A DNA stretch of 64,000 bases from Monocercomonoides exilis PA203 (Eukaryota; Protista; Preaxostyla): positions 992,001 through 1,056,000 of the forward strand of contig LSRY02000032.1 of NCBI GenBank assembly GCA_001643675.2, written 5' to 3'. Of the stretch, positions 12,710 through 64,000 are shown in pieces (within the stretch, counting starts at the first letter, position 1; every line of letters begins with the position of its first letter). A program made the position numbers and the translations under genes. The notes under the pieces were generated by a model. The model had not been told where the DNA came from and did no database searches. It saw nothing but the letters and a program-made list of their open reading frames with translations.

Positions 12710-13400
12710 CAGTTAATTTTTGATAAATTTGATATCACAATATACATGGTTGAACATAATCACATTACTAAAAAGTCAAATTCATACAAATAATTACATA
12801 AATAATTTTTTTTATATGGAGAAACTATAAAGCATTTTATCATGAATTTCAAAACAACAATCAATTATCTCATTACATCCATAATTGCTCAATTTCATTT
12901 TCATAATGACGTATTTTTCATCATTCATATTTTATCATTTTTTCATTTTTTTTCTGCAATATATTTTCTTTATTTTTCGAATAATATTTATTTTTTTTTA
13001 TTATTATATTTTCTCATTTTTCATTTTTTCGCATTTTCAGTTTTCCTTTTCTTCTTCTTTTTCTTTCTAACTATCAAATTATTCAATTTCATCTCTATTC
13101 TTTGATTTTCTTTGCTTATTTTTTCGCATTAATTACCCAAAATTCGTTCCCATTTTTAATAATATTTCTTATTCAAGTTTTTAACGTTGAGAAATACATT
13201 TTCGTGAAAGCAATAAACAGTTCTTATAACGTGTGATTAAAATTCTTTTTATATAAGTTAGTTATATCATTTGTTTAATATTGAATATATTCGTTCATTG
13301 TTTTTTGTAACAGATTGGAAGTTACATTGTTGCAAAAATACATATTTAATCATACAAATAACTAAGGAATTTTGCAATTTTTTTCAAGGAAAAGGAGGCA

Positions 13401-39900: not shown

Positions 39901-41089
39901 AATAGCAATGCTGGGAGAGGTGCTGACACGACTGGTGAGTGCAGTGACTGGACTGGCTGAATCAGCAATTCCGGCAGAGCGACCTTTGAACGAAATGGGC
40001 TTGGATTCGATGGTGGCAGTTGAATTGAGAGCACGGATGGACCAGGAGATCGGATATTCAGTTCCAATTGTGACATTCGTGCAGGGTGCATCTGTGAAGG
40101 CTGTGTGCGAAAACATTCTGGAGCAGATGAAAGGCTCTTCACAGTCTTCATCTTCCTCTGCCTCTGCCTCTGCCTCATCATCTGCTTCATCGTCTTCTGC
40201 TTCGAGTAGCGCAGGTGCGAAGAGCGAAGCGATGGTGGAGCTGACGAAGGGATCAGGAGCAGTCTATGCTATTGTGTGCCAAGCAGGTGGAGTGGCATCT
40301 TCAATGAACGGACTTGCAAATCATATGACACAAATGCTGAAGAGAGGCGTGGTGGCATTTGAAGATCCATCACTTTATGGAACAGCAGCTCCATTCAAGT
40401 CAGTGAAGGAAATGGCCACACAGTACATTGCACTGCTGAAGGAGAAGCAACCGAAAGGCCCATATTCATTGTGCGGATTCTCATTTGGTGGCTTTGTGGC
40501 ACAAGAAATGGCACATCAGCTGATCGAGAAAGGCGAAGAGGTGGCAACACTGTCGCTGGTGGATCCTCCATCACCATCTCTGTGTGGTGCGAAGACAACG
40601 AGAGGAAGATCAGAGACATGTGCTGTGCTGTTGATGGCAGCCGGAGTGAAAGGAACAGCAAAGGTGAACGACAGTGTGGCAAAGCGAGTGATGAAGCGGT
40701 TGAGCGAAGTGAAGGAGGATAGCAGCGAGGCAAGATGGAGCGTGTGTGTGGAAGAGCTGAAGAAGATTGGAGTGATCACAAGGCCAGGAGAGGAAACAGT
40801 GCTGAAGAAGACTTGGACAGTTATTGCCAACGAGATTGAACTGCTTCCATCACATCACCCAGATATCATTGCTGGAAGCAGTGGATCAACAACTAAATGC
40901 ATATTGTACCAGCCGCAGCAGAACAAGAAGTTTGTGAAGGACTTGTTGCTTCTGGACGAGGCAGAGAGCGAGTGGCGCAAGATTATTCCATCTCTTCAGG
41001 CTGTGCCTATTCCTGGAGATCATTGGACAATCATCGGTGCAGAACTTATGGACGAGACAGCTGATCTGCTGGCAAAGGCGGAACAGTGA
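24933..41089 (+). CDS. Modular type I polyketide / fatty-acid synthase: FAAL-ACP | KS-AT-KR-ACP | KS-AT-DH-ER-KR-ACP | TE (~5,300 aa; two 5' introns and one 15.7-kb exon)
   Basis: FAAL: FLQYTSGSTGIPKG, WLPLYHDMGLIG, YGLAEATL, LRTGDLGF, KTTSGKIQR. ACPs: GISS, GLDS, GLDS. KS1: DTACSSS/HGTGT/KSNIGH. KS2: DSACSSS/HGTGT/KSRIGH. ATs: GHSIG and SAFH. KR1: GGFGGFG/YASAN. DH: HYVIGAVLVP and DSSLQ. ER: NFRDVL and LVHLGSGGVG. KR2: GGLGGLG/IDD/YAAAN. TE: GFSFGG and GDH. Intron 25270-25388 joins ORF 25044-25289 to the 5228-aa ORF in frame. The 24933 start is tentative. Confidence 0.95.
29474..30059 (+). repeat. 586-bp direct repeat, copy 1 (AT1 core)
   Basis: Identical on visual comparison to 34832-35417 (offset 5358). 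The ORF track shows matching incidental ORFs in both copies. Confidence 0.92.
34832..35417 (+). repeat. 586-bp direct repeat, copy 2 (AT2 core)
   Basis: Identical on visual comparison to 29474-30059. Confidence 0.92.
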
Positions 41090-41483: not shown

Positions 41484-42820
<1,337 letters not shown>

Positions 42821-43787: not shown

Positions 43788-46700
43788 ATGTTATTGTTGC
43801 TTTGTATTTGCTGTTTTTATGGCGTTGTTAGCTGTAACGAGATAAACAATTGTTTTTTGAAAGATTTTGGCGATGAAAAGAAATCAGAAAGTTTAACCAC
43901 TTTCACAAAACCACAAATAGCTGATGCACACATTCTGTTCTACAATGCTTCTTCTGCGATGATTCATGTTGATTTTTGGACTGTTCATTCGGAAGATCAT
44001 GTGTTTGTTGTTGATGAAAAGTCCAAAACGAAGTTGGTCGATATCCGCTTTTGCATGAAGCACTCTTGTCCACAGCACACCCTTTTCTTGTCGAATGGCT
44101 TTGTTTGGGCATCGAATCTGAGTTTCGTTTCATTCGATTGCAGATGCTCAATTCCATCGATTGTCTCCTCTGCTCCAGGATTTGAGAGCCAAAATGAAGG
44201 GAAAACTGTCTTGGAATGCAGTGCAATCAGTTCACATGTGATTTCAACAACATGCCCCTTTGTGGGTGATTGTGGCACTTCATTTGTGTCTTTGGAGGAT
44301 TGCCACTTTTTCAATGTCACACAACAGAAAAGAGTGAAAACTGTTTCTTTGTCCAATACAAAAGCGATTGTTGACAGCTGTGATTTTTCGGATATGACAA
44401 CACCATATTATGGATGCATTGTCAGTGGATTGCTTTCAACAGGAGGTTTTGCAGTGTTCAACACATCTTTTCGAAAATGCAGTTACAGCAAAACTGTTGT
44501 CAATACAGTTACAACAAATGGAACAGAACCTGTGTTTTTCTCTGACACTTATTTCAATTGCAAATCTGAAAATGATGGAGGTGCCATTTATCATCGCATT
44601 AACTATCCAATGACAATTGAGAGATGTATGTTCTTTGAATGCAATTCTTCTTTGAATGGAGGAGCAATAAGATCCAACAATGATCCAGCACTTTATGCAT
44701 TAACCATCAACAATACAATTGGTGAAAAATGTGCTGCCACTCTTGTTGGAGGGTTTTTAGTGAGTGATTATCAGAAAAACATGCAAATGCGAAACACAAA
44801 CATTTCTGATTCACATGGAAAAGAATGTGGGTGTGTGTATTTGAATCGGTATCCTGGAAATGTTTCAATTTCATGTTGTTATTTGAATAATTGTTCTGAA
44901 GAAGGAGATAGAATACCTTTGAGTTCAGGAGGCATTTTGATTGGAGATGGACACAACGTGTCAATTAGTGATTGCAGTCTAACAAAATGCTCTGGTCTAA
45001 CAGTTGGAGGCATTTGCTTTTGGGGAGATAAAGATTGGGGTGGCGATTATACAGGGGTTGTGATGTTTTGCTTCTTTGAAGAAAACTCAGCCAGAAATGG
45101 AGGAAAAGATGTTTCAGTAATGGGGGAGTGGGTTGAGAATGCAGACCAGTCAATGTTGATTGAATGCCGATCAAAAACATTGGGATCGAATCGAGTGATG
45201 CATGGGGAAAGTGATGTGAGTGAGTGGATTCCATATTTTTATTCTGGAGCGTTGTATGTGAACAGCGAGACTGGAGATGACAACGAGGCTTGTGGAAAGA
45301 ATGAAAGGAAGTGCAGGACAGTGGGCTATATCCCTGTGTTGGTTGATCCGCAAAAAGCAGAAAGCACAAGAGTGGTGATTGAGTCACCGAGGATTGCAGA
45401 GCATGGCTGCAATGTGGCAAACAAGAAAATAGAAATTGTTGGGAGCACAGGTGGAGAGCTGACAATAACAACTGCTCTCGCATCTACTTCACTATTTTCA
45501 GTTGTGGATGGACATTTGAGCACAAACTCGATTCAGATCATTCATGATGCTACACAATCGACAGCAGATTCATTGGTGTTCCTTTTGGAAGGATCAGGGT
45601 CACTCCATGTGGATGGTTGCACCCTCACGTCAGGGAGCGGACACTCTGAGTCAAATGCATTCTCCAGCTCGATGATAATGCTGAAAGGAGGCGAGGCCAC
45701 AGTCGAAAACACTCACATCTCGTCATTCTGGCTGCTGGATGCATCGTGTATTTTGCTTTGTGGATCGTGCTCAATGAGAGTCTCGAACTGCACACTGGAG
45801 AAGATTGTCCGAAACGGAGGAGAAGGTGGAGGCATTTCTGCAACCATTAAATCTGGTTGTGAGCTTGAAATATGTGAATGTGCATTTGACAATTGCACAG
45901 CAAAAGAAGGAAATGGAGGAGGGGTGAAAGTTGTTCTGGAAAGGGGAGGAAGCCTTGTTATTGGTGAATCGACAAATGCCACATCATTTTCTGTGTGTTC
46001 TGCACAAAGAGCCAATGGAAAAGGAGGATTTGGAGGTGGGCTGTGCATCTCCAGCATGGCCGAAGATGTGTCGCTCAGTCTGATCAACCTCGAATTTGCA
46101 GACAACAGTGGATCAGTGGGAAGGGATGTTTATGCTTCATTGAAGGATCTCAGGACAAAAGTGAACAATGAGACATTTTCATGGGCATTTTTCATCGAGT
46201 CGGAAAAACGGGAGAACTCGCTGTGTGGAGTTGATGGAAACTTTTTCGAAAACGATGTGGATCTCTTCATCTTCATCACAGGGCTTCAATCAACAACAAT
46301 CGGCACAAGTGGTAGTGAAGGCGAAAATGCCATATACTGTGGAAATGATGTTCCCTGCAAAACACTGGATTATTCCATTCAGCAAGCTGCGGGTATTGGA
46401 GAGTTGACAATCACGATCCATTTGTCAACCACACTGTCTTCGGAGACTGTTCTGAACTCTCACACAATAAAGTCAGGCAGCGACTCAGAATGCAATCTTG
46501 TTGTTAACTCATCACTTGAAGGGCAGACAGGAAAAGTGATCTCGACAACAGGAGTGCTGAAGTTGAACAAGATTGCGTTTTCGATTCCTTCATCGTTTGT
46601 CCATTCACAGAACACGCTGATTCATTCGCATTCAACAGCAAGCGAACTCACAGTCAATGGCTGCCAATTTGTGAACCAAACATCAGCTCCCATCTCGTAT

Positions 46701-49700
46701 GTGCTGTTTGATGTTTCTGAAGGAAAACTCAGAATGGAAGACATCACACTTTCATCGTTATCCTTTTCGGGAAAGGTGTTTGCAATCACCCCGTCTGTTG
46801 ATGCTGAGATCATCTCACTCAATGTGAGCAATTCAGAATTGGGCACAAATCCCTTGTTATCTGTTGATGGATCTGTGCAACCTCAGAATTCCCCATCAGC
46901 TCGCAACAGTGACCTCACACCGTCTTTGACTTTCAAAACATGCACATTTCGAGAAATAGATGTTTGTGAAGCAGATTGCTCGGGGATCATCTCGACTGGT
47001 GCCTCCATTCCCTTGTTGTTTGATGGATGCACATTTGTGAGCATTTCATCACCAACAAGTGTTGAAGGAGGAGCAATGAGGATCTCGGTTGAAGAGTCTG
47101 GGAGCTTTTCAATCAATGGAACGAGTGTGTGCCAAAAGTGCAGCTGCGAAAACAGAAGGGTTGGGAAGGGAGGCTTTCTTTGGATGCATTTCCCTGAAAG
47201 CCATGGAGACTTTGCTCTGGGGATGATGAGCCTGAAAGAGAACAGCGCATTCACTGGCCGTGATGTGTTTGTCACATGCAAGGACTTGCTTGAGATTGTT
47301 GATCCGTCATCCTTTTCGTTCGCTGCGGCAGTTGCCGAGTCTGAAAGAAGCAATTCTCTGGTGGGCACTGATTCATTTTGGTTTCATTCCCAGGATGAAG
47401 ATCTGTTTGATTTGGTTCTGGGATATCGAAGCCGAGTCATTTATGTGAACTCGACAAAAGGGATGAACCACATTGGATGTGGGAAACGCTCGTTCCAGTG
47501 CACAAGCGTTGACTATGGGATCACACGAGTGGCAGATGGCGAAGAAAGAAGGATTGAGATTGGCGAGGCGGGAAATGTGGGAGGTGAATTCGATCTTGTT
47601 CACCTCCTGATTGAGTCAAACAGCGAAGAAACAGCTGTTCTTTCTGTGAGTGGTGCCATTCCAAAAACGAGAGATTGCATTGTTGAGGTTGGAGATGGGG
47701 TTGTGAAAGATGTGGCATTCTCACTTCCAGGTGCCTTTGTGAATGGGCACGGCACCTTGTTTGCATTGCCATTTCCCACATCTGTGCTGACTCTCGAGGT
47801 ATGCTCCCTCGCCAGTTCTTCATCAACCACAATCTCATTCAATCTTGTTCTTCTCAATGGTGGGGATCTTGCTCTGAAGAACTGCAAAATAGAAAACATT
47901 GCATCAGCTGTTTCGCTTGTGGAAGTGCTCTATCAAGAGCATCCAAGCAACGAGGATGCGAAAGGACACAGCATTGTGTTTGATTCATGCTCATTTCTTT
48001 CGACAACAGAAACAGGGAACACAGCAAGCACAGCGAAGATTGATTCCTCAGACAGTGATGTGTCTGTGACAGTTAAGAATTCGACATTTTTGAAGTGCTG
48101 CGCAGACTCGAGCAGTTGTGGCGGGGCATTGTTTGTTGGATTGGGCAAAGGTTCCTCGCTGGAGGTGAACGATTCGAGCATGAGCCTGTGTGAGACAGCA
48201 GTCGGGAAAGGAGGAGGGATGTATCTGAACGGGGCAGATGCAGAGCATTCGCTCCTGCCATTTGTGATTTCGAATGTGACATTCTCGAGCAACAACGCAA
48301 TTGTCGGGCGCGACATGTTCATCCAGTGCGACAACTTGTCCACTCAGATCAGTGAGCGCCACTTCCTTCTAGATTTCAGAGAGCCTCCATTCAACAGACA
48401 CAACTCGATATGGGGAATGGATGCAGCACTTCCATCACACGATGTTGACATCATCCCCATGGTTGTGATGTATCAGAGCGAGCTGATATTTGTGAGTGGA
48501 ATTGCTTCTGGCGCTGCTGATGCGAAGTCATGTGGAAGTGTGTTCTCGCCATGCCGTTCGCTGTCGTATGGGGTGCTGCATGTGATCCCTTCGATCTACA
48601 GTCAAGTGATTGCAGAATCCGAGACAGCAGTCTCTGCAGAAGTGGTGTTCCGAGATGTGGCTGTGAAGAGCTCTTCATTGAACAGCCACTGCCGTGTGCT
48701 GCTGGGAGGCACAACAGCAAGTGAAACGAAGTATTCGGGATTAATGGAGTGCATGGGGAGTGTATCTTTCGAGAAGATGGATTTTCTCTTTTCTGAGGAA
48801 TATGCCTCGTCGCATGTGTCTGTGTTCAACATCCAGAATGGAGCCACCTCAATCATCTCATGCACATTCACAGGAAGTTCAGAAGCGATGGTGCTCAGCC
48901 AGACCCTTTTTGTTGTTTCAGCAGGGCTGTTGGATGTGCAAAAAGTGGTGTTTGACTCGCTCAACATACACAGCGATATTCTTCTCCTGAGTCCATCAGC
49001 AAGCACTTACATCAGTCAGATACAGGTCAAGGCGGTTGTTTCAGATTCTTCATTGGTTGTGGCAAATCAGGCAAGTGCAACGATGATTGATGTGGAAATC
49101 GACAATTCGTCATGGGGAAAAGGAATGATCACAGCCTCTTCATCGAATGTTTCTGTTTCGTCGTTGACTTACTCCTCTGTGGAGGCTGAAACAGTCATTG
49201 TTTCAGCTCATTCGAGCTTGTCGATTGAAAAGATAAAACTCATCAAATCAACAATCAAACAACATGCCATTCTGGTGGATTCATTGGATGGGCAGGTGAT
49301 TGTCAAGGAATTGTTTGTTGAAAACATCAAACTCTGCAGTGGAGGCGTTGTGTGTTGCACTTCTCGGCAGAATGATTTGACAGAAGGAAACGATGGATTG
49401 TGCAGCATAATGCAGGCATCGTTCAGCAACATCACATGTGCATCAAGTGTTGAATCAAAAACAGCAAGTGTTTTTGACTGCTTTTTGAGCAGATATCCGA
49501 TCCATCTGCAAAACTGCTCAGCTGTGAATTGCACTTCTCATCCAATGAAGGGAGCAATCGCCTCTTTCAACTGCTGTTCAAATGCTTCTTTCGATTTGTG
49601 TGTGTTTGATGGAAGTTCGTCAGCCAAAGATGAAGGCTGGAAAAGAAACGATGGAATGAATGGGGTGTGCATGTGGAATGAATCGATTGTGGGTCTGGTG

Positions 49701-51734
49701 AACTCGAGTGCTTTCATGAAAGACACAACAATCGAAAACTCTCCGTTTGGTGGATTGTCGATTTCTGGTGGGAAAGCAGACATTGAGAAAGGAGAGTTTG
49801 CGAACAATAACCCGCAGATCGAAAAATACCCATCATCCAGAAGAAATGTCTTCTGTTCTGATTCCGGAGCATTGGTTGTTTCGAGCCTGAAAGGGGGAGA
49901 TGGAACAAAGGAGAACTCATCATTGTGGATGTTGAGCGAAGGGTGCAATGTTTCGGGGATTGTGGCTGACCGGTTGTCATCCTTCTTTATTCCTTCATTG
50001 GATTCTGTCACCTTTGTGAAAGCAGGAAATGAAGCTGTTCTGACGTTTGTTGGAAGGCTGTTGCTTCCTTGCAACATCTCGGTCAGCCTCACATTTGCGA
50101 GAGGGGTCGAGCAGGAAGTCGAAAAATACCAGATAGACAGCGATGATGGATATGTTGGAGAAGAGGAAGTGAGGGCTTCAATCCCTTTGTCTCGATTTGA
50201 AAATGCAAGTGATGAAACTGAGATATCTGTGGAAATCTTATTTGGGAACTCTGATTCTCCCTCGTCAACAAAATCATTCATTCTGAAGAACAAGACTGAG
50301 CCAAATCCAAAAGGAGATGAAAGGATTGTTGAAGGAGGATACAAAGAAGGAAAATCTTATTGGTTGTTGATTGTTATAATCATGGCAGTTATTTTATTGA
50401 TTGTTCTTATTGTATCAATAATTTTTATTGTTCGATGGAGAAAGCAAAAGAGAAGGACAGAGGAATTGGAAGAGATTGTGAATGACACAGTGAAAAAGGA
50501 TCCAAAGCTTATTGAGATGGTGACAATGGAGATGTCTCCAGAGGCACAATGGCGAAGAGCAGAGAAGGAGGCAGAGACGAAGAACGATGAAAGGATAAAG
50601 AAGAGAGTGTATGAGAAAAGCCTTGGACATTCAGAGTCATCAGAGCATCTTCTCTCTGAGAGTGGATCGACTGAATATATTCTTGGAAATGACTCTGATA
50701 AGATTCCTCAATGGATGCTGGAAAAGGTTGAAGAAGAAGAGATTCGAAAGAGATCACCTTCACCATCCATTTCATCCACTTCCACTACAGACACTTCAGA
50801 CACAGAATCCACATTTGTTCGCGGAGAGGATCTGTGTCCAACCACCTCGTCCATGTCGAATCTGGTGGATGCAATGGCCTGCTCATGCCCTTACGAGAAG
50901 CTGATTGTGGATCTAAGAGATTCGCTGTTCATGCTGCTTCACGGGAGGAACGAGAAGAAGGAGATGGCGATTGGGACTCTGCAGGAGAGGGAGATGACTG
51001 GCGCTCAGATCCTGTTCTGGGTGGCGAATCTCGCACTCCACTCGTTTGAGGATGGGGAAGAAGGTCTTTCCTCTCTGGCCAATCTGAGTCCTCATATCGT
51101 GCTGTTCTCAGAACATATGGTGATCTGCATTGTGATGCATTCAGACTTCTCTTCTGATGATGATTCAGATTCTTCTTCCATCTCTTCAACAACAGTTGTC
51201 ACATCTGCCAGCGATGATGATGAAAGTGACTCTCTGCCCTCATCTGCCTTTGAGGATGAAGATGATTTCAAAAAAGAGTGCCTGAGATGGAAGGCTCCTG
51301 AGCTGCTGATGAACAAGAAAATGGGAGCAACAAAGGAATCAGTGGCATTTTCGATCGGGATGATGCTGTGGGAGTGCTTGACGCTACAGATACCATTCGG
51401 TGAGTATGAAGCCGAAGTTGCTGGGCAGAAGATCATGAATGGGGAAAGGCCAAACATGGAGAATACGCATGCAGAATCGATGTTGATGGATGTTGCAAAA
51501 AGAGCAACATCGATGAATTGGCAGGAGAGGCTCACGCTTGGAGAGCTGAAGCGCGAGTTTATTCAGCGGTTTCCGGCAGGAGCTGTAATAATCACAATGT
51601 CAGATGCAATTGACATGGAAAGGGACAGGGACAGCAGCGGCAGTAACAGCTACAGCGACAGCGACAGCAGAGGAGGAAGCTTGGAGGAAGCAGATTCGTT
51701 GCTTGGAGGCAGTGCACTCTGCTCCGAAAAGTGA
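43788..51734 (+). CDS. Giant single-pass receptor-like protein: signal peptide, Cys-rich beta-helix ectodomain, TM helix, degenerate kinase C-lobe (pseudokinase)
   Basis: Intronless ORF; the first ATG (43788) gives MLLLLCICCFYGVVSC. Repeated GGAI/GGG(L/M) and FxxN motifs, and four G-x-D/N-xxx-CG...C modules. TM helix YWLLIVIIMAVILLIVLIVSIIFIVRWRK. Kinase subdomains VIII-IX (LRWKAPELL, FSIGMMLWECLTLQIPF) are present, but no HRD, DFG or GxGxxG is recognisable. Confidence 0.88.
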   Translation: MLLLLCICCFYGVVSCNEINNCFLKDFGDEKKSESLTTFTKPQIADAHILFYNASSAMIHVDFWTVHSEDHVFVVDEKSKTKLVDIRFCMKHSCPQHTLFLSNGFVWASNLSFVSFDCRCSIPSIVSSAPGFESQNEGKTVLECSAISSHVISTTCPFVGDCGTSFVSLEDCHFFNVTQQKRVKTVSLSNTKAIVDSCDFSDMTTPYYGCIVSGLLSTGGFAVFNTSFRKCSYSKTVVNTVTTNGTEPVFFSDTYFNCKSENDGGAIYHRINYPMTIERCMFFECNSSLNGGAIRSNNDPALYALTINNTIGEKCAATLVGGFLVSDYQKNMQMRNTNISDSHGKECGCVYLNRYPGNVSISCCYLNNCSEEGDRIPLSSGGILIGDGHNVSISDCSLTKCSGLTVGGICFWGDKDWGGDYTGVVMFCFFEENSARNGGKDVSVMGEWVENADQSMLIECRSKTLGSNRVMHGESDVSEWIPYFYSGALYVNSETGDDNEACGKNERKCRTVGYIPVLVDPQKAESTRVVIESPRIAEHGCNVANKKIEIVGSTGGELTITTALASTSLFSVVDGHLSTNSIQIIHDATQSTADSLVFLLEGSGSLHVDGCTLTSGSGHSESNAFSSSMIMLKGGEATVENTHISSFWLLDASCILLCGSCSMRVSNCTLEKIVRNGGEGGGISATIKSGCELEICECAFDNCTAKEGNGGGVKVVLERGGSLVIGESTNATSFSVCSAQRANGKGGFGGGLCISSMAEDVSLSLINLEFADNSGSVGRDVYASLKDLRTKVNNETFSWAFFIESEKRENSLCGVDGNFFENDVDLFIFITGLQSTTIGTSGSEGENAIYCGNDVPCKTLDYSIQQAAGIGELTITIHLSTTLSSETVLNSHTIKSGSDSECNLVVNSSLEGQTGKVISTTGVLKLNKIAFSIPSSFVHSQNTLIHSHSTASELTVNGCQFVNQTSAPISYVLFDVSEGKLRMEDITLSSLSFSGKVFAITPSVDAEIISLNVSNSELGTNPLLSVDGSVQPQNSPSARNSDLTPSLTFKTCTFREIDVCEADCSGIISTGASIPLLFDGCTFVSISSPTSVEGGAMRISVEESGSFSINGTSVCQKCSCENRRVGKGGFLWMHFPESHGDFALGMMSLKENSAFTGRDVFVTCKDLLEIVDPSSFSFAAAVAESERSNSLVGTDSFWFHSQDEDLFDLVLGYRSRVIYVNSTKGMNHIGCGKRSFQCTSVDYGITRVADGEERRIEIGEAGNVGGEFDLVHLLIESNSEETAVLSVSGAIPKTRDCIVEVGDGVVKDVAFSLPGAFVNGHGTLFALPFPTSVLTLEVCSLASSSSTTISFNLVLLNGGDLALKNCKIENIASAVSLVEVLYQEHPSNEDAKGHSIVFDSCSFLSTTETGNTASTAKIDSSDSDVSVTVKNSTFLKCCADSSSCGGALFVGLGKGSSLEVNDSSMSLCETAVGKGGGMYLNGADAEHSLLPFVISNVTFSSNNAIVGRDMFIQCDNLSTQISERHFLLDFREPPFNRHNSIWGMDAALPSHDVDIIPMVVMYQSELIFVSGIASGAADAKSCGSVFSPCRSLSYGVLHVIPSIYSQVIAESETAVSAEVVFRDVAVKSSSLNSHCRVLLGGTTASETKYSGLMECMGSVSFEKMDFLFSEEYASSHVSVFNIQNGATSIISCTFTGSSEAMVLSQTLFVVSAGLLDVQKVVFDSLNIHSDILLLSPSASTYISQIQVKAVVSDSSLVVANQASATMIDVEIDNSSWGKGMITASSSNVSVSSLTYSSVEAETVIVSAHSSLSIEKIKLIKSTIKQHAILVDSLDGQVIVKELFVENIKLCSGGVVCCTSRQNDLTEGNDGLCSIMQASFSNITCASSVESKTASVFDCFLSRYPIHLQNCSAVNCTSHPMKGAIASFNCCSNASFDLCVFDGSSSAKDEGWKRNDGMNGVCMWNESIVGLVNSSAFMKDTTIENSPFGGLSISGGKADIEKGEFANNNPQIEKYPSSRRNVFCSDSGALVVSSLKGGDGTKENSSLWMLSEGCNVSGIVADRLSSFFIPSLDSVTFVKAGNEAVLTFVGRLLLPCNISVSLTFARGVEQEVEKYQIDSDDGYVGEEEVRASIPLSRFENASDETEISVEILFGNSDSPSSTKSFILKNKTEPNPKGDERIVEGGYKEGKSYWLLIVIIMAVILLIVLIVSIIFIVRWRKQKRRTEELEEIVNDTVKKDPKLIEMVTMEMSPEAQWRRAEKEAETKNDERIKKRVYEKSLGHSESSEHLLSESGSTEYILGNDSDKIPQWMLEKVEEEEIRKRSPSPSISSTSTTDTSDTESTFVRGEDLCPTTSSMSNLVDAMACSCPYEKLIVDLRDSLFMLLHGRNEKKEMAIGTLQEREMTGAQILFWVANLALHSFEDGEEGLSSLANLSPHIVLFSEHMVICIVMHSDFSSDDDSDSSSISSTTVVTSASDDDESDSLPSSAFEDEDDFKKECLRWKAPELLMNKKMGATKESVAFSIGMMLWECLTLQIPFGEYEAEVAGQKIMNGERPNMENTHAESMLMDVAKRATSMNWQERLTLGELKREFIQRFPAGAVIITMSDAIDMERDRDSSGSNSYSDSDSRGGSLEEADSLLGGSALCSEK

Positions 51735-53941
51735 AAAGGTTGCTTGGAGTTTTTGATGGCTGAATGGCTTAGACATTTATTCAAAGCGCTGCAAACGGAA
51801 GAAAATAATGAAGGCTTGGGGCATGCGAAAGAAAGTCTGTTTCTGAGTTGCTGCATGAACCTTGCAGCACGAATCCGGATTGCCGATCTGAGCTTTTGAG
51901 TAAATTTGCTCCTGGAATCAGCTTGCTTTTATACAAAATGCTTTTGCTGTGCGCACGGATGCTAGCCATTCATATTTTTTGTTGGTGCTTATCATAAAAG
52001 GTGTTCAAATTCATCCGTTTATATAATTTTTGTTTTGCCTTGCAGCCAAAGGTCTCGTTTGCGTTTATTTGAAAATGCTTTTGTTTTTGAATGAAGATTT
52101 GCACGCAATGACTTTGTAACCTCGTTGACGCTCCTCCCTTCCATTTCACCCTCTTTTCATTTCACAACCAGTTTTATTCATTTGAATTTGCTCAAATTTT
52201 TAGACTCCGCAATATTGGCAGCAACAGCGCAGAGTCGTTCAGATCAACAAAGCAGACCTTGCAAAGCGGAACGTGAATAACAGAGTAAACAAGGATTCAA
52301 CAACAGAATGAGTTAAAGAGTCGTAGCTACGTGATGTCGCTTGTGGACCGCAGAAGCAACAACATATAATTCTTTATATTGCGTTTTAAACAGGCGACTA
52401 TCTTGAAAAACACATTTTGACTGGCCGGTTGTTTTGTATTTGGCTAAATGAAAAATACATTTTACGCAAAGTAATTATGGACACGAGAATTTTTCCGATT
52501 ATGTCGAAGAAATTGAACAGAAATAACAGAATCGAACATATCTAATTGAAATTTGAATATATATATATATATATATTCTTTTGTTCAGTTCTTTTGTTTT
52601 TAATAATGAAAAGAATCACGATATTTTTATTGTTTTTGTGTTTTGCAGAATCTCAATAAAACACATTATTTGCATCTTGACAAATATTTTGATAAAGGGT
52701 TATGAATTTCAATTATTTTTTTGAAAGAAGATCTATTTGAATATATGTGAAAAAAAATTCACATTTTAATTTTTGGTATTTTTTATTCAGTTTGAATTTT
52801 TTTGCTTCGAATAAATTATTTTCTCAATTTTTGATTCATTTCAAATAAGAAACAATTGTAAATCAATAAAATTCTATTCAGTTTTATTATTAATTGAAAT
52901 TTCATTTTTTATAATTAAAAAAAAATAATTTTCATTTTGATTTTCATCGCTTTAAAAAAAAAGAACTGAACAAAAGAATATATATATATATATACCATGG
53001 ATGCTTAACCCGCACCCTGGTGCCAAACCAGCACCCAGCAAATTATCAGATTTTTCAAAAAAAAAAATGTGAACACGCATTTGATTGTGTGTGAAGAGCT
53101 CACATTCGGACAATTACTATATTTATTATTTATAATTAATATTTTCCCCAAAAAATACAAAAATATTCATTTTCATAAAAATTGTTTTAATTTTTATATA
53201 TTTGAAAATTTGCTATTTCCTAGCCATGGCAGAAAAAGAAAAACATCCTATTGTGCTTATTTTAATATTTGCGAACAAAAAATTAAACGTATGGGAAAAT
53301 TTTTCCGATATTTGTCTGATGGAACTTATTTCAACGATTAGATCAAAAACCATAAAAATGTGAAAACAATTGGCATGCTTAGCTGTAGCTTGGAGAAGAA
53401 GTTAACTATGAATATTTCAATAAAATTTTAATAATAATGTATCTTTTATGTAATTTACAGCAATTCTTTTAGTGGCTGCACTTTTCAGAGCCATGCTTTG
53501 TTTGGAGTGTGTTTTTTGGAGAGCAGGCTTTCCAAAAGTTAGATTACAGTTTGCCGTTTTTAAGTACTTGCATATTTTATAAAAATTTGCCTTGTGTAAT
53601 AATTAAATTCTTCAAAAACTTGTTTTTGAATGTTTTGTTTGACGCACATATTTGCTTGATTTTATTATTGAAAAGAATGAAGCTGCATATATAGCTGCAG
53701 CAATTTGTGCTGTAAACATTAACTGCTATTTAATGTTAATTTTTCGAAAATGAGAAATATATGTGTATTGATGGTTTTGATTTTTATCATTTTTTACAAT
53801 TCAATGACTTTTTTGTTAAATGTTCATTTCACGTGTTAATTTTGATGGAATCCGTTGTGCATCTATTTATTGCGTTGTATTTATTTTTTCCAAAATGAAA
53901 TAATTTATGTGTGATGAATGAGACATTAGTAATTATTATTT
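50409..53941 (+). repeat. Left arm (3.53 kb) of the giant inverted repeat
   Basis: Reverse complement of 54243-57773. Mirrored ORFs in the track include 53069-53341/54843-55115 and 50415-50630/57552-57767. I found only two 1-bp homopolymer differences. Confidence 0.93.
52576..52978. mobile_element. ~400-bp AT-rich MITE-like element flanked by (TA)n
   Basis: 20-bp TIRs TTCTTTTGTTCAGTTCTTTT and AAAAGAACTGAACAAAAGAA, each abutting a (TA)n tract. Mirror copy at 55206-55607. Confidence 0.6.
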
Positions 53942-54242
53942 ATTTATTTTCTGTTATAAATGATATTTGTCAACCAAAACACAAATCTATCTGGTAAATA
54001 TTTGTCCAAACCAAATTAACCCAAGGTTATTATGAAAAATAGTCTTGAACTTGATGTAAAACAAATTAAATGTCAATCGGATTTATCTGATTGATTGTTT
54101 TTTAATAACAGAACATGATGTAAAAAAAAGCGTTATTTTAATGTGTTGTTTTAATTCTTAGATAAATGCAAAACGTTATAATAAAATATAAATATTTTTC
54201 TCCTTCTCATATTTAATAAATGAATATTTAAATAAAAATATC

Positions 54243-57200
54243 AAATAATAATTACTAATGTCTCATTCATCACACATAAATTATTTCATTTTGGAAAAAA
54301 TAAATACAACGCAATAAATAGATGCACAACGGATTCCATCAAAATTAACACGTGAAATGAACATTTAACAAAAAAGTCATTGAATTGTAAAAAATGATAA
54401 AAATCAAAACCATCAATACACATATATTTCTCATTTTCGAAAAATTAACATTAAATAGCAGTTAATGTTTACAGCACAAATTGCTGCAGCTATATATGCA
54501 GCTTCATTCTTTTCAATAATAAAATCAAGCAAATATGTGCGTCAAACAAAACATTCAAAAACAAGTTTTTGAAGAATTTAATTATTACACAAGGCAAATT
54601 TTTATAAAATATGCAAGTACTTAAAAACGGCAAACTGTAATCTAACTTTTGGAAAGCCTGCTCTCCAAAAAACACACTCCAAACAAAGCATGGCTCTGAA
54701 AAGTGCAGCCACTAAAAGAATTGCTGTAAATTACATAAAAGATACATTATTATTAAAATTTTATTGAAATATTCATAGTTAACTTCTTCTCCAAGCTACA
54801 GCTAAGCATGCCAATTGTTTTCACATTTTTATGGTTTTTGATCTAATCGTTGAAATAAGTTCCATCAGACAAATATCGGAAAAATTTTCCCATACGTTTA
54901 ATTTTTTGTTCGCAAATATTAAAATAAGCACAATAGGATGTTTTTCTTTTTCTGCCATGGCTAGGAAATAGCAAATTTTCAAATATATAAAAATTAAAAC
55001 AATTTTTATGAAAATGAATATTTTTGTATTTTTTGGGGAAAATATTAATTATAAATAATAAATATAGTAATTGTCCGAATGTGAGCTCTTCACACACAAT
55101 CAAATGCGTGTTCACATTTTTTTTTTTGAAAAATCTGATAATTTGCTGGGTGCTGGTTTGGCACCAGGGTGCGGGTTAAGCATCCATGGTATATATATAT
55201 ATATATTCTTTTGTTCAGTTCTTTTTTTTTAAAGCGATGAAAATCAAAATGAAAATTATTTTTTTTAATTATAAAAAATGAAATTTCAATTAATAATAAA
55301 ACTGAATAGAATTTTATTGATTTACAATTGTTTCTTATTTGAAATGAATCAAAAATTGAGAAAATAATTTATTCGAAGCAAAAAAATTCAAACTGAATAA
55401 AAAATACCAAAAATTAAAATGTGAATTTTTTTTCACATATATTCAAATAGATCTTCTTTCAAAAAAATAATTGAAATTCATAACCCTTTATCAAAATATT
55501 TGTCAAGATGCAAATAATGTGTTTTATTGAGATTCTGCAAAACACAAAAACAATAAAAATATCGTGATTCTTTTCATTATTAAAAACAAAAGAACTGAAC
55601 AAAAGAATATATATATATATATATATTCAAATTTCAATTAGATATGTTCGATTCTGTTATTTCTGTTCAATTTCTTCGACATAATCGGAAAAATTCTCGT
55701 GTCCATAATTACTTTGCGTAAAATGTATTTTTCATTTAGCCAAATACAAAACAACCGGCCAGTCAAAATGTGTTTTTCAAGATAGTCGCCTGTTTAAAAC
55801 GCAATATAAAGAATTATATGTTGTTGCTTCTGCGGTCCACAAGCGACATCACGTAGCTACGACTCTTTAACTCATTCTGTTGTTGAATCCTTGTTTACTC
55901 TGTTATTCACGTTCCGCTTTGCAAGGTCTGCTTTGTTGATCTGAACGACTCTGCGCTGTTGCTGCCAATATTGCGGAGTCTAAAAATTTGAGCAAATTCA
56001 AATGAATAAAACTGGTTGTGAAATGAAAAGAGGGTGAAATGGAAGGGAGGAGCGTCAACGAGGTTACAAAGTCATTGCGTGCAAATCTTCATTCAAAAAC
56101 AAAAGCATTTTCAAATAAACGCAAACGAGACCTTTGGCTGCAAGGCAAAACAAAAATTATATAAACGGATGAATTTGAACACCTTTTATGATAAGCACCA
56201 ACAAAAAATATGAATGGCTAGCATCCGTGCGCACAGCAAAAGCATTTTGTATAAAAGCAAGCTGATTCCAGGAGCAAATTTACTCAAAAGCTCAGATCGG
56301 CAATCCGGATTCGTGCTGCAAGGTTCATGCAGCAACTCAGAAACAGACTTTCTTTCGCATGCCCCAAGCCTTCATTATTTTCTTCCGTTTGCAGCGCTTT
56401 GAATAAATGTCTAAGCCATTCAGCCATCAAAAACTCCAAGCAACCTTTTCACTTTTCGGAGCAGAGTGCACTGCCTCCAAGCAACGAATCTGCTTCCTCC
56501 AAGCTTCCTCCTCTGCTGTCGCTGTCGCTGTAGCTGTTACTGCCGCTGCTGTCCCTGTCCCTTTCCATGTCAATTGCATCTGACATTGTGATTATTACAG
56601 CTCCTGCCGGAAACCGCTGAATAAACTCGCGCTTCAGCTCTCCAAGCGTGAGCCTCTCCTGCCAATTCATCGATGTTGCTCTTTTGCAACATCCATCAAC
56701 ATCGATTCTGCATGCGTATTCTCCATGTTTGGCCTTTCCCCATTCATGATCTTCTGCCCAGCAACTTCGGCTTCATACTCACCGAATGGTATCTGTAGCG
56801 TCAAGCACTCCCACAGCATCATCCCGATCGAAAATGCCACTGATTCCTTTGTTGCTCCCATTTTCTTGTTCATCAGCAGCTCAGGAGCCTTCCATCTCAG
56901 GCACTCTTTTTTGAAATCATCTTCATCCTCAAAGGCAGATGAGGGCAGAGAGTCACTTTCATCATCATCGCTGGCAGATGTGACAACTGTTGTTGAAGAG
57001 ATGGAAGAAGAATCTGAATCATCATCAGAAGAGAAGTCTGAATGCATCACAATGCAGATCACCATATGTTCTGAGAACAGCACGATATGAGGACTCAGAT
57101 TGGCCAGAGAGGAAAGACCTTCTTCCCCATCCTCAAACGAGTGGAGTGCGAGATTCGCCACCCAGAACAGGATCTGAGCGCCAGTCATCTCCCTCTCCTG

Positions 57201-57773
57201 CAGAGTCCCAATCGCCATCTCCTTCTTCTCGTTCCTCCCGTGAAGCAGCATGAACAGCGAATCTCTTAGATCCACAATCAGCTTCTCGTAAGGGCATGAG
57301 CAGGCCATTGCATCCACCAGATTCGACATGGACGAGGTGGTTGGACACAGATCCTCTCCGCGAACAAATGTGGATTCTGTGTCTGAAGTGTCTGTAGTGG
57401 AAGTGGATGAAATGGATGGTGAAGGTGATCTCTTTCGAATCTCTTCTTCTTCAACCTTTTCCAGCATCCATTGAGGAATCTTATCAGAGTCATTTCCAAG
57501 AATATATTCAGTCGATCCACTCTCAGAGAGAAGATGCTCTGATGACTCTGAATGTCCAAGGCTTTTCTCATACACTCTCTTCTTTATCCTTTCATCGTTC
57601 TTCGTCTCTGCCTCCTTCTCTGCTCTTCGCCATTGTGCCTCTGGAGACATCTCCATTGTCACCATCTCAATAAGCTTTGGATCCTTTTTCACTGTGTCAT
57701 TCACAATCTCTTCCAATTCCTCTGTCCTTCTCTTTTGCTTTCTCCATCGAACAATAAAAATTATTGATACAAT
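54243..57773 (-). repeat. Right arm (3.53 kb) of the giant inverted repeat
   Basis: Reverse complement of 50409-53941, separated from it by a unique 301-bp spacer (53942-54242). Confidence 0.93.
55206..55607. mobile_element. Mirror copy of the (TA)n-flanked MITE-like element
   Basis: Reverse complement of 52576-52978 within the right arm. Confidence 0.6.
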
Positions 57774-60700
57774 CAGAACAATTAAAAACAATATGACAAA
57801 AAGAACAATCACTATCAAGGCCCAAGAACTTTCTCTGCCTTTTTCACCTTTTGTGATTGGGGATTCGTTGTTGTTCGTCATTTGAGTTTTGTTTCTCACA
57901 ACAATTGCTTTTGTGAATGAAGACGATTCTTCGTTTCCGAATTGAATTTGAACCGACACTTCTATTTCTGGCGAGGCATCTGAAATGATGGAATTGGGAG
58001 TTGCGCCGACAATTGCTTCTTCGCTTTCAAATCCGGCTTCGTCAAACAAGAAATGTGTTATTTGCTTGGCTTCTCCATCTGACAAAACAACGCAAAACGA
58101 TAAGTTGCATGGAAGCAAAAGAGAACCTTGGAACCTCATCAACGTGTTGTATTCCATTTCCTCGGTTGTTACTGCTTGCAGCGTGGGGACAAAAAATGTC
58201 GAGCCTCTTTCCTCTCCAGCACCTGTTATTTCGCACCCCTCGTTCAGTATCCATAGAGATGATAACAGCTGTGGATTATTCTCACCAGTCTTCACTCCTT
58301 TGATACGCATAATTGCAGAATTTGTGCACACGATGTTCCTTTGGTATGACGGATACTTCTCCATTCCTGGTGAATTGTCGTAAAACTCGGATTTCTCAAC
58401 ATCAACACTGCCTCCACTTACGCTCAGTCCTCCTTCTGATGAATTTGTGATTGTTGTTGCTTTCAAAGTTGCTGTACAGTCTTTGAGCTCCACCACAGAT
58501 CCATTCCATCTGCATATCACATCTGTGCTGCCTTTCTCCAGCACTTCTCTTCCATTCTCTTTCTTCCCTTCGAAAAGCGAATTTTCAACATACACAATTT
58601 TCGATGATGAAACAGACATAATTTGTCCGACATTTGTTGCGCATGAATGATTTCTCAGTGAGCAATTCGCAATCCGAAAGTCTTGCCCTTCAGCACAACT
58701 TGTGATGCAGCTTGCACCATTTGATTTTTGCTCAATATCACCAATCACCGAATAAGCCAACAGGACAGACCCATGTTCATTTGCAGATCCTCTTCTTTGC
58801 TTTCCTTCCTCGTCAACAGATATCAATGAGCTCTCAGCAAGAGTCACATTTCCTATTCTCGCTTCTTTCAATGTGATATTAGCTCCTGGGATGATATGAA
58901 TTATCCCCTTAGCTGAGTTCAAATTGGACATATTCATGGAGCTCAAACAGCATTCGCACCCTCCTTCAAATGCAAACAGCGGCTTTTCACTATTGATCCC
59001 AACAACTTCGCTGTTTTGGATCTGAAACAACCCACTTTGCACAGTTATCAGGGACTGCCTCAAATATTCCTCTCTGCTTCCTGCTGTAAACTTGGACGAA
59101 GAGATCGCAAGCGATCCGTTTGCTTCTGTTAGCACACTCTCGTGAAGCGTCGAGAAAGCTGCGTGAATGCTCATCGCAATGTTTTCCACTTTCACATCTC
59201 CCGAGCACTCCATCACACATCCTTGGGAAGCCAGCTGGCTCACTTCCTGTCTCAGATGGACAATTGCTGGATGCGACACTTCCTTGCTTCTCAACACCCC
59301 ACACCTTATCGCACAGTCTTTCACGATGTCTGCCTCTTTCTCAATCAGAAGCTGGCTATATGACGAATCAAGAAGATGCGAAAGACCGTAATTGAGAGAT
59401 CGGCATGGAGCACTGATATTCCCACACGGCTTTGTGTCGCTCCCTTTTCCCTCTGCCCCGCTCACAAAGATCAGCTCGCTCCGATACACAACGATCAATG
59501 GAATTAGATCTATATCTTCTTCTGCCTCGCCCTCTCCCACACCCCATATCGCATTTCGTCTGTCATATGGAGGTTCTCTCAGATCCAGGACAAACTGAAT
59601 CTCATTGATTTGCTGCGAGGTCAGCCAGCACCTCACAAACATATCCCTTCCGACTCTTGCTCTGTTGCCTCCAAATGTGACATTCGAAACCACAAACCTG
59701 AGAATCCTTGCCTCTTTCATCTCGCTTTCCAGATATGCCCCTCCCCCTTTCCCCTCTTGTGCAGAGCATGTGCATATATTCGTGCTATTCACTTCAACCA
59801 TACCATTTGCAGGCACCATCACCCTGAGCCCACCTCCACAGCTGTTGCTATCTGCGTGACAGCCTTCAAATGTCGAATTCAGAATCTGGATTAATCCGCT
59901 ATTATTGATGCAGCACACCAATGCACATGCCTCTTCGTTGTTATCATTTTCTATGTTCCTGATTGAACACTCTTCCATCTTCATGCTCCTCTCGTCCGTG
60001 TGCTCGCTTGCTTCATTGAAACATATCAGTGCGGATGTGGCTTTTATTCCGCTGATCTCACACAGACACAGCCACAGATCCCCCTCGTTAATCTCAAAAA
60101 TTCGAAAAGACAAAGTCGATTCTGCCTGAAGAGAAAAAGCACATTTTTCGATTTTCACATACGACTGGGGCTGGGCCAATCCGATCAATGCTCTTTGACC
60201 GTTCGTTAATGCACCTGGAATGGAATAGTTCACCCTGCATATTGTTGTTTCATTTCCAGCAAGCACGACTCCTTCATCCATGGGAAGTGAGTCGCTCACA
60301 TAAATTGCAGAATTCGATTCCATTTGCAATGGTCTAACAAGCATGTAATCCAGTTTCGTCTCCCTTCGCACCTCGCACTTTTCCCGAATTGCCACTGTCT
60401 TTTCTCCATCTCCACGAATATGCTCCACTCCAGTCTCAAAAGTCAAGCACGGAAATATCTCTTTTCCGCATCCGATGTTGTTTGCCCCTCGTTCACCATC
60501 GACATAGATCGTCTCGTTGAAATACCCAGTGATGAACACAAACAGATCTTCGTATCCCTCAAACCGTGTTCGGTCGCTCCCCATGAGCGAATTCACCCTG
60601 ATTGAGACATCAATTCTAGAAGCAAACTCAAATGATGAGCTGTTCACAACCTCTGTCAGATCCTTGCAGCTGATGAACATGTCCACTCCCACATGTGCTC

Positions 60701-63700
60701 TGTTGTTCTCAAATTCCAAATTCACGAATCTCACTTCGCTTGACTCTCCTCTGCATTCCAAGCACACAAACCCACCTCGCCCCATGCTTTCTGTCTCGCA
60801 CTCGCATTTGTGGCACAGCGTCTGCACTCCTTGCATTGCAACAGAGCCTGATTCTGTTAATGCCACACGGATCGCTCCTCCAGCCACACTCGATGAAGAT
60901 CTCACTTCATTAAACACGCAATCTTCCAAGATAATCTGCCTTTCAGTCTCCGTCGAGGCTAAGCACCCTTCATCTGTGCTTGCAAGTGATATTCCTTCAA
61001 ATTTGGTTTTGTTTTGAAGAAAGCGTGGAGCGTTGTTATCGTTTTTGCACTTCTCGCTTGTCAATGACTCATCTTCTGCAAAAGCAAACAGTGGACCATT
61101 TGACAACGTTATCTCTTTGAACCAAACCCCATCCATTTCTGCTTCGCTGCTCTCACTAAACTCAAATGGGCTGACACAAAATGAAACACCAGAGATTGAG
61201 CATCTGTCCATTTTCATCTTCCCTCCAACAATTTGCACAAATGTGTATCCAACGGCTGATGCAGACTGGGATTTCAAGGAGCAATCTATCAAAGAAACTG
61301 ATGAGTTGTCTGCATCACCAGATTTGATCAACCGTCCAACAGGGATCGAGTAATGTGGCTGGATCACAAAGTTCACTCTTTCAAACAACACATCTTCTCT
61401 GTTCAGCAGCACCCAATCACATCCTTCCATCTGCGGCGAAGCGATCTCCTTAAACACCAACTCACACAATGAGTCAGCAGCTTTCGAAACAACTGACATC
61501 CCCGATAAGTCAAAACGGTCCTGAATGATTGTTTCTCTGTCGATTCTTATTTCTTTCACTTCGGCTGCATCATGCGCGATATTTGCATATCCCCTCCAGA
61601 ATGACTCACACGGGAGCAATTCATCTCCACATCCCAAAACATCAGTCCCTTCAGCAGACACTTCGATGCACAGCGAATGGCGCTCCTCCAGAAAATACGC
61701 CAGATTCACACCTTCAGAAAATAAAATGTCATCAACTCCGTAAATGTCAATATCATTCCTTGTCTCATCTCCATCTTCGTTCTTTATTCCAAATATTCTG
61801 GTGCGTGATATTGTTCTGTTCAGCTCGTGGCATTTGATGAACACATCACGTCCCATCAATGCTTTGTTCCCACTCACGCAAACATCGCTTATTGCAAAGT
61901 CCTTTGGACAGTCTTCTCCTTCAAGCTCGATATATATCCCTCCTCCCTTCCCGATTGTTTCATCAACTGCGCACTCCTTCATCGTTGTGTTCTCAACCTC
62001 CAATTTCCCATTCTCCTTCACACGGAAATACATTCCTCCTCCGTCTCCATCTGCTCTCTTGCAAGAACAAATATTGCAGCTCTCGTTCAGTGTCATTTCA
62101 TCCATGCCAGCACCCTTGATCCCACATCCATCTGCAAAGACACAATTCGAGATACTTATTCCTCTCAGCGCAACACATCCCTTTTCTGCTGTTATCAGTC
62201 CATATCCACTCAATGAGGTTGAACAGAAGTCGTGAATCCCCACATTATCCATCTCAAGACTGTTTCCTCCAAACATCACAACAACCATTTCTGTTTCTGG
62301 AGCTTGTGCATTTCCAAATGCTTCTTCTTCTCCACACTTAAATTCGACAAAGTTCGCAACACACTTTCCAACAGAAACTGTTATAAATGCCTGATGATCG
62401 CTTTCGCATGGCAGTGTTACCACCAAGGAGCACATCTCGAGGCTCGTCGATTCGTCTCCTGTTGTCTGTTCCACACACCCACACCTTGTCACAACAACAT
62501 TTCCTTTGACTCCGTTATTTCCTGCAATTCTCAACTCTTTCCCGCCTCGATTCACTCTTCCGTCCAGTGGAGCAGTGTCCTTTATGATCAACGCAGTCTG
62601 ATCGTCTCTCATCATATCCATTCCAAACTTCACTTCATTGCACGGAACATCAATCCACCCACAACGCTCATATTTTCTTCCCTTTCCATCGACAGACAGC
62701 CGTGTCTGTTCGAGCGGAGGCCTGAACACGAAATGAATCAGAGATGTCAACAACTCCATTCCTTCTGTTTTATCCTCCACCAACATTCGATCCTCGCCAA
62801 TGTCTCTGAAAACTGTGTCTGTCCATGCTGATGGTTCCAGCATCTTCTCTGGCTCAGCTGTCACGATGTAAATATCCTTTCCGTGTTTCCCTTTATTGCC
62901 TGAAAATGTGTTGTTTTTCACTGAATATGATGTGCTTAGGCATGACAACTCCAGAAACATCCCTCCTCCACATCCATTTTGTTCATCCACGCTGCATTCA
63001 CTCACTGTGCACGAGTTTATTTTCAGCACTCCTCCATTCTCGACTTTCACACACAATCCTCCTCCTTTTCCATTCAAGTCATTGCACTTGCATCTCTTGA
63101 TTGTGCTATTGTCGAGCTCAACAGTCTTGGCTTCTGCAACTGAGCAGCTCAAAATGCTTCCACACACATTGCAACGGGTCACATCGCAGAATGTTGAATT
63201 GATGCCTTTGAAGATATCTCCCAGACTCACAAGTGGAACATTGTCCATCATAAATCCAGACACTTCGCAAGTGTGCAATGTGACTGTTCCTTCAGCAGCC
63301 CAGATATTTGGATGCTGAAAGACGATATCTGGCGAGTCTTTGCATCCTGTGAGACAGCATTTGTGGAGCTCAAGTGTGCCTCCGGCATCTGAAATGCAAA
63401 ACAAGCACGACTCCTTCTCGCTGTTGTCTGGCTTTCCATGGGCAAACATCAGATCCGACAAACTCAAAACTCCAGAACTTATCATGAAAAGTCCTTTCTC
63501 TTCTGCTTCCAGCTTTGCAATTATCTCAGATGCCCCGCTTCCCTTTCCCTTCCCTGTGATCTCAAATCCATCAATTTTGATCTGCTTCGAAACAAAAACC
63601 CCTTCATTAATCTCCATCTCAATGTGCTCTTCACTTGCTCTTTCCACTCCTTTTCCAACAGTCAGGCAGTTCAACGAGTCATTCTCACTTCTTCCACATC

Positions 63701-64000
63701 CGCTCCAATCAATGCCATTCGGAGTCACAACAATCACATCCAACACTCCAACAGGATCTGGGAGCAAATGGGATATGTTTTCTGAAATATCCCATTCATA
63801 CACAATTCGTTTTTGGTTGCTGATGGAATATGAATTGACAATAACAAGTTTCAATTTATCCCTCTGAGCATTGCTAACAAAAATGTCATTTCCATGTTGA
63901 ACTGCTGAATTGTAATAAAAAAAGCAACTGATTATTGTTGTTGTATATTTTACAGTTTGAGTGTGATCAAAAAGGACTGCTCCTGCGTTTGTCAAAGCTT
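56449..64000 (-). CDS. Second giant receptor-like pseudokinase paralog (5' end beyond the window; 1-bp frameshift near the C-terminus)
   Basis: Open frame from the window end to 56667. Same architecture as 43788-51734, with five Cys modules visible and TM helix SWALIVIVLFVILFLIVLIVSIIFIVRWRK. The cytoplasmic part is identical to the + copy until an A5 to A4 change at ~56682-56685 shifts the frame. The remaining C-terminus lies in ORF 56449-56670. Confidence 0.85.

Follow-up and report, generated by a model that had tools for sequence, protein, structure and literature searches.

A 7.4-kb palindrome joining the 3′ ends of two receptor-like genes, and tail exchange in a pseudokinase family of Monocercomonoides exilis

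How do two genes with different ectodomains come to share one transmembrane (TM) end, one cytoplasmic tail and the DNA behind it? The question is raised by a 64,000-bp stretch of Monocercomonoides exilis PA203 (assembly GCA_001643675.2, contig LSRY02000032.1, positions 992,001 to 1,056,000; hereafter the window), in which the 3′ ends of two convergent genes, A and B, are joined by a palindrome of ~7.4 kb. The features concerned, in window positions, were:

43788–51734, plus strand: gene A, a single-exon open reading frame of 2648 aa, deposited as MONOS_17812 with a later start
50367–50435, plus strand: TM-coding segment of A, inside which 31% protein identity with B changes to nucleotide identity
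50436–51731, plus strand: cytoplasmic tail of A, with a charged helical stalk, a Ser-rich segment and a degenerate kinase fold of the tyrosine-kinase-like (TKL) type
50409–53941, plus strand: left arm, 3533 bp, with the C-terminal half of the TM segment, the entire cytoplasmic tail, the stop codon and 2207 bp of 3′ flank
53942–54242, no strand: spacer, 301 bp, AT-rich (21% GC), unique
54243–57773, minus strand: right arm, 3531 bp, equal to the left arm in reverse complement except for two one-base gaps (no substitutions)
56449–64000, minus strand: gene B, start outside the window (~65270 by model P0002), with 5 Cys-Gly modules, a TM segment and a tail identical to that of A
1–329, minus strand: 5′ end of gene B′ (P0122), start codon at 329; its ectodomain is a 96.6% copy of that of B, on the same contig

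The palindrome and its two genes

Global alignment of the arms gave no substitution in 3533 bp, with identity running from 50409/57773 to 53941/54243. The two 1-bp gaps were both in A-runs (51497 and 52917, missing from the right arm). Arm positions, length and spacer were thus as in the original prediction, made from the sequence of the window. Three A/B mismatches were found in 50394–50408, the last at 50408 and none downstream, placing the onset of identity inside the TM-coding segment. From there it continued, as had been claimed, through the stop codon and ~2.2 kb of non-coding flank (2207 bp measured). The ectodomains, described as strongly diverged with 4 versus at least 5 Cys modules, shared 634 of 2068 aligned residues (30.7%), and from the translations we read four Cys-Gly modules in A and five in B (a regular-expression count gave 3 and 4).

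A near-perfect inverted repeat 3.5 kb long rules out a chance origin. There was no other inverted pair with more than 170 bp per arm in the window. The absence of substitutions extended to silent and non-coding sites, indicating that the arm identity results from copying and not from selection. Each arm also carried a 435-bp element (52560–52994 and its mirror 55190–55623), bounded by 44-bp terminal inverted repeats whose ends are TA runs. It is possibly a non-autonomous transposon and a candidate source of breaks.

The gap at 51497/56686 frameshifts B as assembled, giving a stop at 56667, 73 codons short of the stop of A, and the deposited model of B, P0002, carries this short end. The base missing from B was present in contigs of all four runs mapped, so the frameshift is likely an assembly or consensus error. 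The annotation of A is probably truncated. MONOS_17812 begins 366 residues late (window 43788–44900), and the open frame from 43788 matched a full-length duplicate of A on the same contig, A′ (P0124, 2648 aa), at 95.5%.

Tail and ectodomain histories in four genes and in the family

The ectodomain of A′ was 95.8% identical to that of A, so that A, A′, B and B′ form two pairs of duplicates. In the ectodomain, 1248 alignment columns supported the split (A,A′)(B,B′) and none supported (A,B)(A′,B′). Among the 365 tail columns, 13 supported (A,B)(A′,B′) and none either other split. The conflict of the two groupings (1248:0 versus 13:0) indicates an exchange of tail DNA later than the duplications that gave A/A′ and B/B′, which bears out the claim that a tail was copied at the DNA level onto a different ectodomain. 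Leaving B out, the tail of A′ still agreed with B′ at 350 of 365 positions, but with A, its own duplicate, at 341 of 365. B′ was identical in two annotation sources. When the 13 informative sites were compared with 118 paralogs, the minority residue was in A/B at five and in A′/B′ at eight.

Apart from B′, none of the relatives of B-type ectodomains exceeded 35% across the whole region (58 matches), while B-type tails fell within the tail radiation of the family, indicating that the B-type tail was replaced later than the ectodomain diverged. A′ is located 29 gene positions before A, with ~8–10 genes between B′ and A (accession order follows position), and A′ and B′ are therefore probably non-adjacent. 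Both appear to have ~600 bp of 3′ flank in common with the arms, as suggested by contig depth and by a branch near 55821–55857. The best other matches to this tail were 82% and 85% identical, among the 120 of 530 and 120 of 245 matches listed by two family searches. No further copy of the tail was among them, and arms that are a collapsed consensus of dispersed paralogs were rejected at the protein level.

Another quartet with the same crossed pattern (P0014, P0059, P0061 and P0065) was found on one contig of 1,199,392 bp. Its ectodomains paired as P0014–P0061 and P0059–P0065 and its tails as P0014–P0065 and P0059–P0061, with edges 136–183 residues before the TM end.

The first family search gave 530 proteins at E 1e-10 out of 7973 candidates and the second 245 shorter ones; two annotation versions overlap in them. 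All 119 named proteins among the best 120 of the 530 matches were from M. exilis. For comparisons across the family we used 122 proteins (the best 120 minus one duplicate model, plus A, A′ and B′), or the 113 of them with a contig label, from 42 contigs (9 unlabelled were dropped).

Family-wide, the history of the tails is decoupled from that of the ectodomains, chiefly between genes of one contig. Among the 122 proteins, median identity was 81% in the tail and 35% in the last 535 ectodomain residues, in agreement with the predicted repertoire of variable ectodomains on conserved tails. The two identities were uncorrelated (rho −0.004, 7381 pairs). The term “constant region”, used in the original prediction, fits the tail only loosely: typical paralogs differ at ~19% of tail residues, and 100% tail identity was found only in the A/B pair. 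Comparing ectodomain and tail trees, which the prediction had proposed as a check, revealed incongruence family-wide. Of 28 supported tail splits (≥0.95) in the 113-protein set, 20 conflicted with a supported ectodomain split, versus 0 conflicts in all five runs in which tails were simulated on the ectodomain tree. For the 100 genes with a mate on their contig, the nearest neighbour was on the same contig for 69 tails and 54 ectodomains (permutation mean 2.6), and nearest tail and nearest ectodomain belonged to the same gene in 20.

Twenty-six pairs combined tails of ≥90% identity with ectodomains of <60%, and 21 of these were on one contig. The arms of a palindrome are not required for such exchange. 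The other tail-sharing pairs looked up were 6–97 gene positions apart, and we rejected adjacent palindromes as the genome-wide arrangement of tail-sharing genes. Purifying selection alone was rejected as well, both by the identical silent and non-coding sites of the arms and by close ectodomain duplicates with background-level tails (e.g., 88.6% versus 80.6%).

Origin of the palindrome and edges of exchange

We consider it probable that the palindrome arose by a single, recent copying of a 3′ end in inverted orientation, inside a family-wide process of ectopic conversion. Homology-driven DNA repair would likely have copied this 3′ end from one gene onto the other. In the general process, ectopic gene conversion or break-induced copying may start in the conserved tail and run until homology drops. 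The last event here would be an inverted duplication, made near the spacer by fold-back or a switch of template and with its resolution in the TM segment of the partner. The 2.2 kb of identical non-coding flank argues for such an event rather than for small patch conversions. That A/B homology ends in the TM segment would be explained by the B ectodomain and linker being orphans (≤35% to any paralog but B′). With 0 substitutions, arm divergence is bounded at <~0.09%, compared with ~4% protein divergence of the duplicates, and the last 3.5-kb copy appears to be recent. Fold-back and break-induced copying have been described in yeast (PMC6103520), and copying of this kind is a plausible route to the inverted copy. 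Exchange likely keeps the tails uniform, and the reshuffling of ectodomains and tails may be a by-product of ordinary recombination.

The same arms could belong to an old palindrome whose identity is maintained by ongoing conversion between the arms, as on the Y chromosome, but this is unlikely. It agrees with the 13 differences from A′ and B′ that the arms hold in common, with a tail type and part of a flank that predate the last event (the ~600 bp apparently shared with A′ and B′), and with the human P6 palindrome, whose conversion tracts extend over 2 to >9 kb (PMC3723533). A′ and B′ being probably non-adjacent, however, there is no sign of a tight palindrome before the duplication, and a single copying event covers all the data in fewer steps.

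Both explanations take the second arm to be real, as it very probably is. Contig mapping (Logan) covered 55330–60600; the left arm and the palindrome centre lie outside this range. X3 and X5 contigs pass from the B-type ectodomain into the TM/tail letters of the A/B type, ending 30 bases inside the arm, and X3 agrees with the arm sequence over 954 bp. At the diagnostic site 56559, two runs had the A/B letter and two the A′/B′ letter. In run X1, depth was 183 on the arm-specific flank, 330–347 near the stop and 140–147 on merged B/B′ ectodomain contigs, which fits two arms plus two outside copies, contig depth not being equal to copy number. P0123, a model of B found only in EukProt and presumably based on an older, fragmented assembly, ends at 57780, which is 7 bp away from the edge of the arm; B′ is whole in EukProt. 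The original prediction also had transcription running on from the two genes into the arms, which would give long hairpin dsRNA. The RNA contigs came from mixed cultures; one of them (run X5, 55693–56820) extends ~760 nt beyond the stop, and no contig mapped to 55330–55681; DNA may be in the library, and the uncovered part carries no weight. The words “argonaute” and “RNA interference” were not found in the available part of PMC6759080, an M. exilis genome paper.

An assembly product, from fold-back or read correction, could still stand in for a true B tail of another, ~96% identical version. Both arm differences are homopolymer gaps, one of them contradicted by four of four runs, and depth on the arm-specific flank in X2 and X3 looks like that of a single copy. 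In addition, nanopore accuracy falls in inverted duplicates (PMC7229812), and multi-copy parts of the assembly were polished less well (PMC8767320). We nevertheless find such an artefact improbable. The flanks differ, unlike in a simple fold-back chimera, and the residual errors in the right arm argue against its having been homogenised by short-read polishing. P0123 stops short at the arm edge, in spite of B and B′ having been told apart at 96.6% identity. The 2:2 letters at 56559 are as expected for two identical arms, and so are the X1 depths. The conflict of tail and ectodomain, finally, stands with A, A′ and B′ alone, and family-wide.

According to the original prediction, the TM segment acts as the exchange point. 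Part of this held: edges of exchange were enriched near the TM segment, but most were located elsewhere. In the 26 mosaic pairs, identity started in the TM segment only in the four of the A/A′/B/B′ quartet; 13 started 67–217 residues upstream and nine inside the tail. After merging, 49 edges from 17 contigs were distributed over the TM segment (7), the linker (9), the zone from −225 to −126 (16), other ectodomain (5) and the tail (12). Linker and TM segment together (66 residues) held 16 of the 49 edges, versus 5.9–7.5 expected for uniform breakpoints (p 0.0001–0.002). The TM segment alone held 7 (3.1–3.4 expected, p 0.03–0.05) and the upstream zone 16 (8.3–10.9 expected, p 0.005–0.06). The bins for these statistics were set after the data had been seen and the edges are not fully independent. 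Both edge zones coincide with steps in family-wide identity, which fits tracts running until homology fails. Of the supported splits, 17 of 33 were in conflict between the two halves of the membrane-proximal ectodomain and five of five between the tail halves, so that exchange is not confined to a single point. Our best reading makes the TM segment a boundary of homology rather than a site dedicated to switching.

A dedicated, possibly programmed exchange site in the linker and TM segment, similar to those of antigenic variation, would account for the 16 edges in 66 residues. It would also suit the coinciding A/B and A′/B′ edges (both at −12) and the close ectodomain pairs with background-level tails (6 of 25), whose excess identity ends between −57 and +24. 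However, 33 of the 49 edges lie elsewhere, 16 of them 126–225 residues upstream, the excess in the TM segment alone is small, and both ectodomain halves and tail halves conflict among themselves. Each gene examined has its own tail, without a trace of donor cassettes lacking one among these genes, and no recombinase gene was found in the 64-kb window. Such a site is therefore very unlikely.

Several points weigh against a single recent copy within family-wide conversion. The enrichment of edges in linker and TM segment is equally expected from a targeted site. A single genome cannot separate a single event from repeated conversion, nor give the direction of donation. No contig or read spans an arm and the long-range layout comes from one assembly; the Logan contigs merge B with B′, leaving the link of B itself to an A-type tail unphased. 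Flank depth in X3 (3.7) and X2 (56) was no higher than on single-allele ectodomain pieces, at face value one copy. The family tests are protein-only, use 113–122 of 530 matches picked by tail similarity, identify contigs by their length, and have non-independent pairs and post hoc bins.

The copying event may also be part of a wider, chromosome-local combinatorial repertoire. Hundreds of surface binders would continually trade their pseudokinase tail at two preferred homology zones, orphan ectodomains would be re-fitted with the current signalling module, and the palindrome would be a snapshot of one such refit. We put this forward tentatively.

Protein family, neighbouring features and known systems

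Protein A has a hydrophobic N-terminus, an ectodomain with four Cys-Gly modules, a single TM helix and a pseudokinase tail. Each protein had one hydrophobic peak before the kinase-fold tail. The PF07714 match in the tail covers profile positions 162–257 of 258, that is, only the kinase C-lobe, which matches MLT/TAK1/ILK; PF07714 was also found on most relatives. The tail of A keeps RWxAPE and the C-lobe, without GxGxxG, VAxK, HRD and DFG. Each of these four motifs was found in 0 of 122 tails, D[FLWY]G somewhere in four and W.APE in 121. Distant relatives at 19–28% identity showed the same degenerate domain, three with a TM helix before it. In the protein cluster atlas, the family's own cluster was found at 0.99 and otherwise weak kinase leads at 0.78.

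An AlphaFold2 model of a 975-aa ectodomain consisted almost entirely of strands (pLDDT 86.5). Its best PDB matches were PL6 alginate lyases, the Sf6 tailspike and autotransporter passengers (E 2e-4 to 1e-3, TMq ≤0.20), all of which we take to be β-helix structures. A and B had eight GG[AG][ILVMA] motifs each, and nine and 12 FxxN motifs, respectively. GG[AG][ILVM] and FxxN repeats are presumably the motifs of chlamydial Pmp autotransporters; the Pmp Pfam domain gave no match in A or B. The structure model of the tail (pLDDT 48.7) was set aside as too weak for use. We read the proteins as single-pass surface proteins with a predicted right-handed β-helix ectodomain and a pseudokinase tail. Their roles would be in binding and signalling, as a large repertoire of varied β-helix binders at the surface, mounted on a scaffold tail that is interchangeable and has no catalytic activity.

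Elsewhere in the window, a type I polyketide synthase of 5228 aa and two modules is encoded at 25403–41089 (plus strand; start probably near 25020 with an intron). Its domain order is AMP-binding, ACP, KS, AT, KR, ACP, KS, AT, DH, ER, KR, ACP, TE. The word “polyketide” was not found in the oxymonad genome literature searched for it, including the available part of PMC6759080. The two AT domains (29470–30072 and 34828–35430) are 99.2% identical over 603 bp and the KS domains far less alike, pointing to likely intragenic gene conversion. AT-rich hairpins resembling miniature inverted-repeat transposable elements were found at 371–589, 11292–11692, 11876–12109 and 12470–12733. The first is located directly upstream of the B′ start and is 72–78% like the last; part of it apparently also occurs upstream of B. 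Minus-strand neighbours were an adaptin/gamma-COP-like gene (1000–5124), Nup93/Nic96 (18658–22500), oligopeptidase F (22931–24692) and a small Cys-motif gene (41757–42053), presumably RING-like.

The genes belong to the TKL expansion of M. exilis, as indicated by PF07714 on most relatives. This is the largest family of the organism, with 332 predicted tyrosine kinases, 320 of them TKL (PMC6759080), and it overlaps unclassified repeats (PMC8767320). We found no mention of a TM segment, β-helix ectodomain, loss of catalytic motifs, tail exchange or palindromes in the available main text of these two papers, whose supplements may hold domain lists. Nor was a description of the palindrome, the tail exchange or the pseudokinase state found in the main text of oxymonad genome papers and the openly searchable literature. 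The mechanism is known from other families and apparently undescribed in this one.

Palindromes of the Y and X chromosomes likewise have near-identical inverted arms around a unique spacer, and both arms share changes absent from outgroup copies (PMC3723533). Here the arms were >99% identical and agreed against A′ and B′ at 13 of 13 informative tail sites. However, they are 3.5 kb long instead of tens of kb or more, hold only the 3′ parts of two otherwise different genes and were seen in one genome. In plant CRKs, ectodomain and kinase trees also disagree, and conversion depends on distance and homology (PMC6368629). In contrast, the genes here are intronless across the TM segment, their tails lack catalytic motifs, partners lie scattered along the chromosome, with 100% identity in one pair.

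Plasmodium var genes combine a large variable ectodomain with a more conserved cytoplasmic tail and recombine as shaped by location and homology (PMC1805758), but here no intron separates the parts, the tail is a kinase relic, and there was no sign of exclusive expression or of selection by host immunity. Entamoeba, another anaerobic gut protist, has an expanded family of surface TM kinases with near-identical members (PMC2880585). One of these, EhTMKB1-9, has kinase activity (PMC2880585), unlike what is expected from tails of which 0 of 122 have HRD, DFG or the Gly loop. Active receptor kinases of the TK/TKL type share the single TM helix and the kinase-fold tail, with the catalytic motifs that are absent here. 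The ectodomains of the Entamoeba kinases, we assume, are Cys-rich CXC/CXXC repeats, unlike the β-helix fold predicted here. Chlamydial Pmp proteins share the GG[AG][ILVM] and FxxN repeats, but in place of their C-terminal barrel there is a TM helix and a cytoplasmic tail. In antigenic variation of the VSG/MSG type, conversion into an expression site is anchored in a conserved 3′ region. The edges described here are enriched at linker and TM segment, but spread over other zones.

The palindrome by itself is a modest finding, the extreme case of a tail swapping that appears to run across a large family. The largest family of M. exilis has been catalogued as tyrosine-kinase-like; in all 122 tails checked, its members are giant surface proteins with a dead kinase module. 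Trees built on the kinase domain give a false picture of how these genes descended. The tails show concerted evolution along chromosomes as the ectodomains diversify, so that M. exilis, a commensal gut protist and model amitochondriate eukaryote, can serve to test how ectopic recombination maintains a receptor repertoire.

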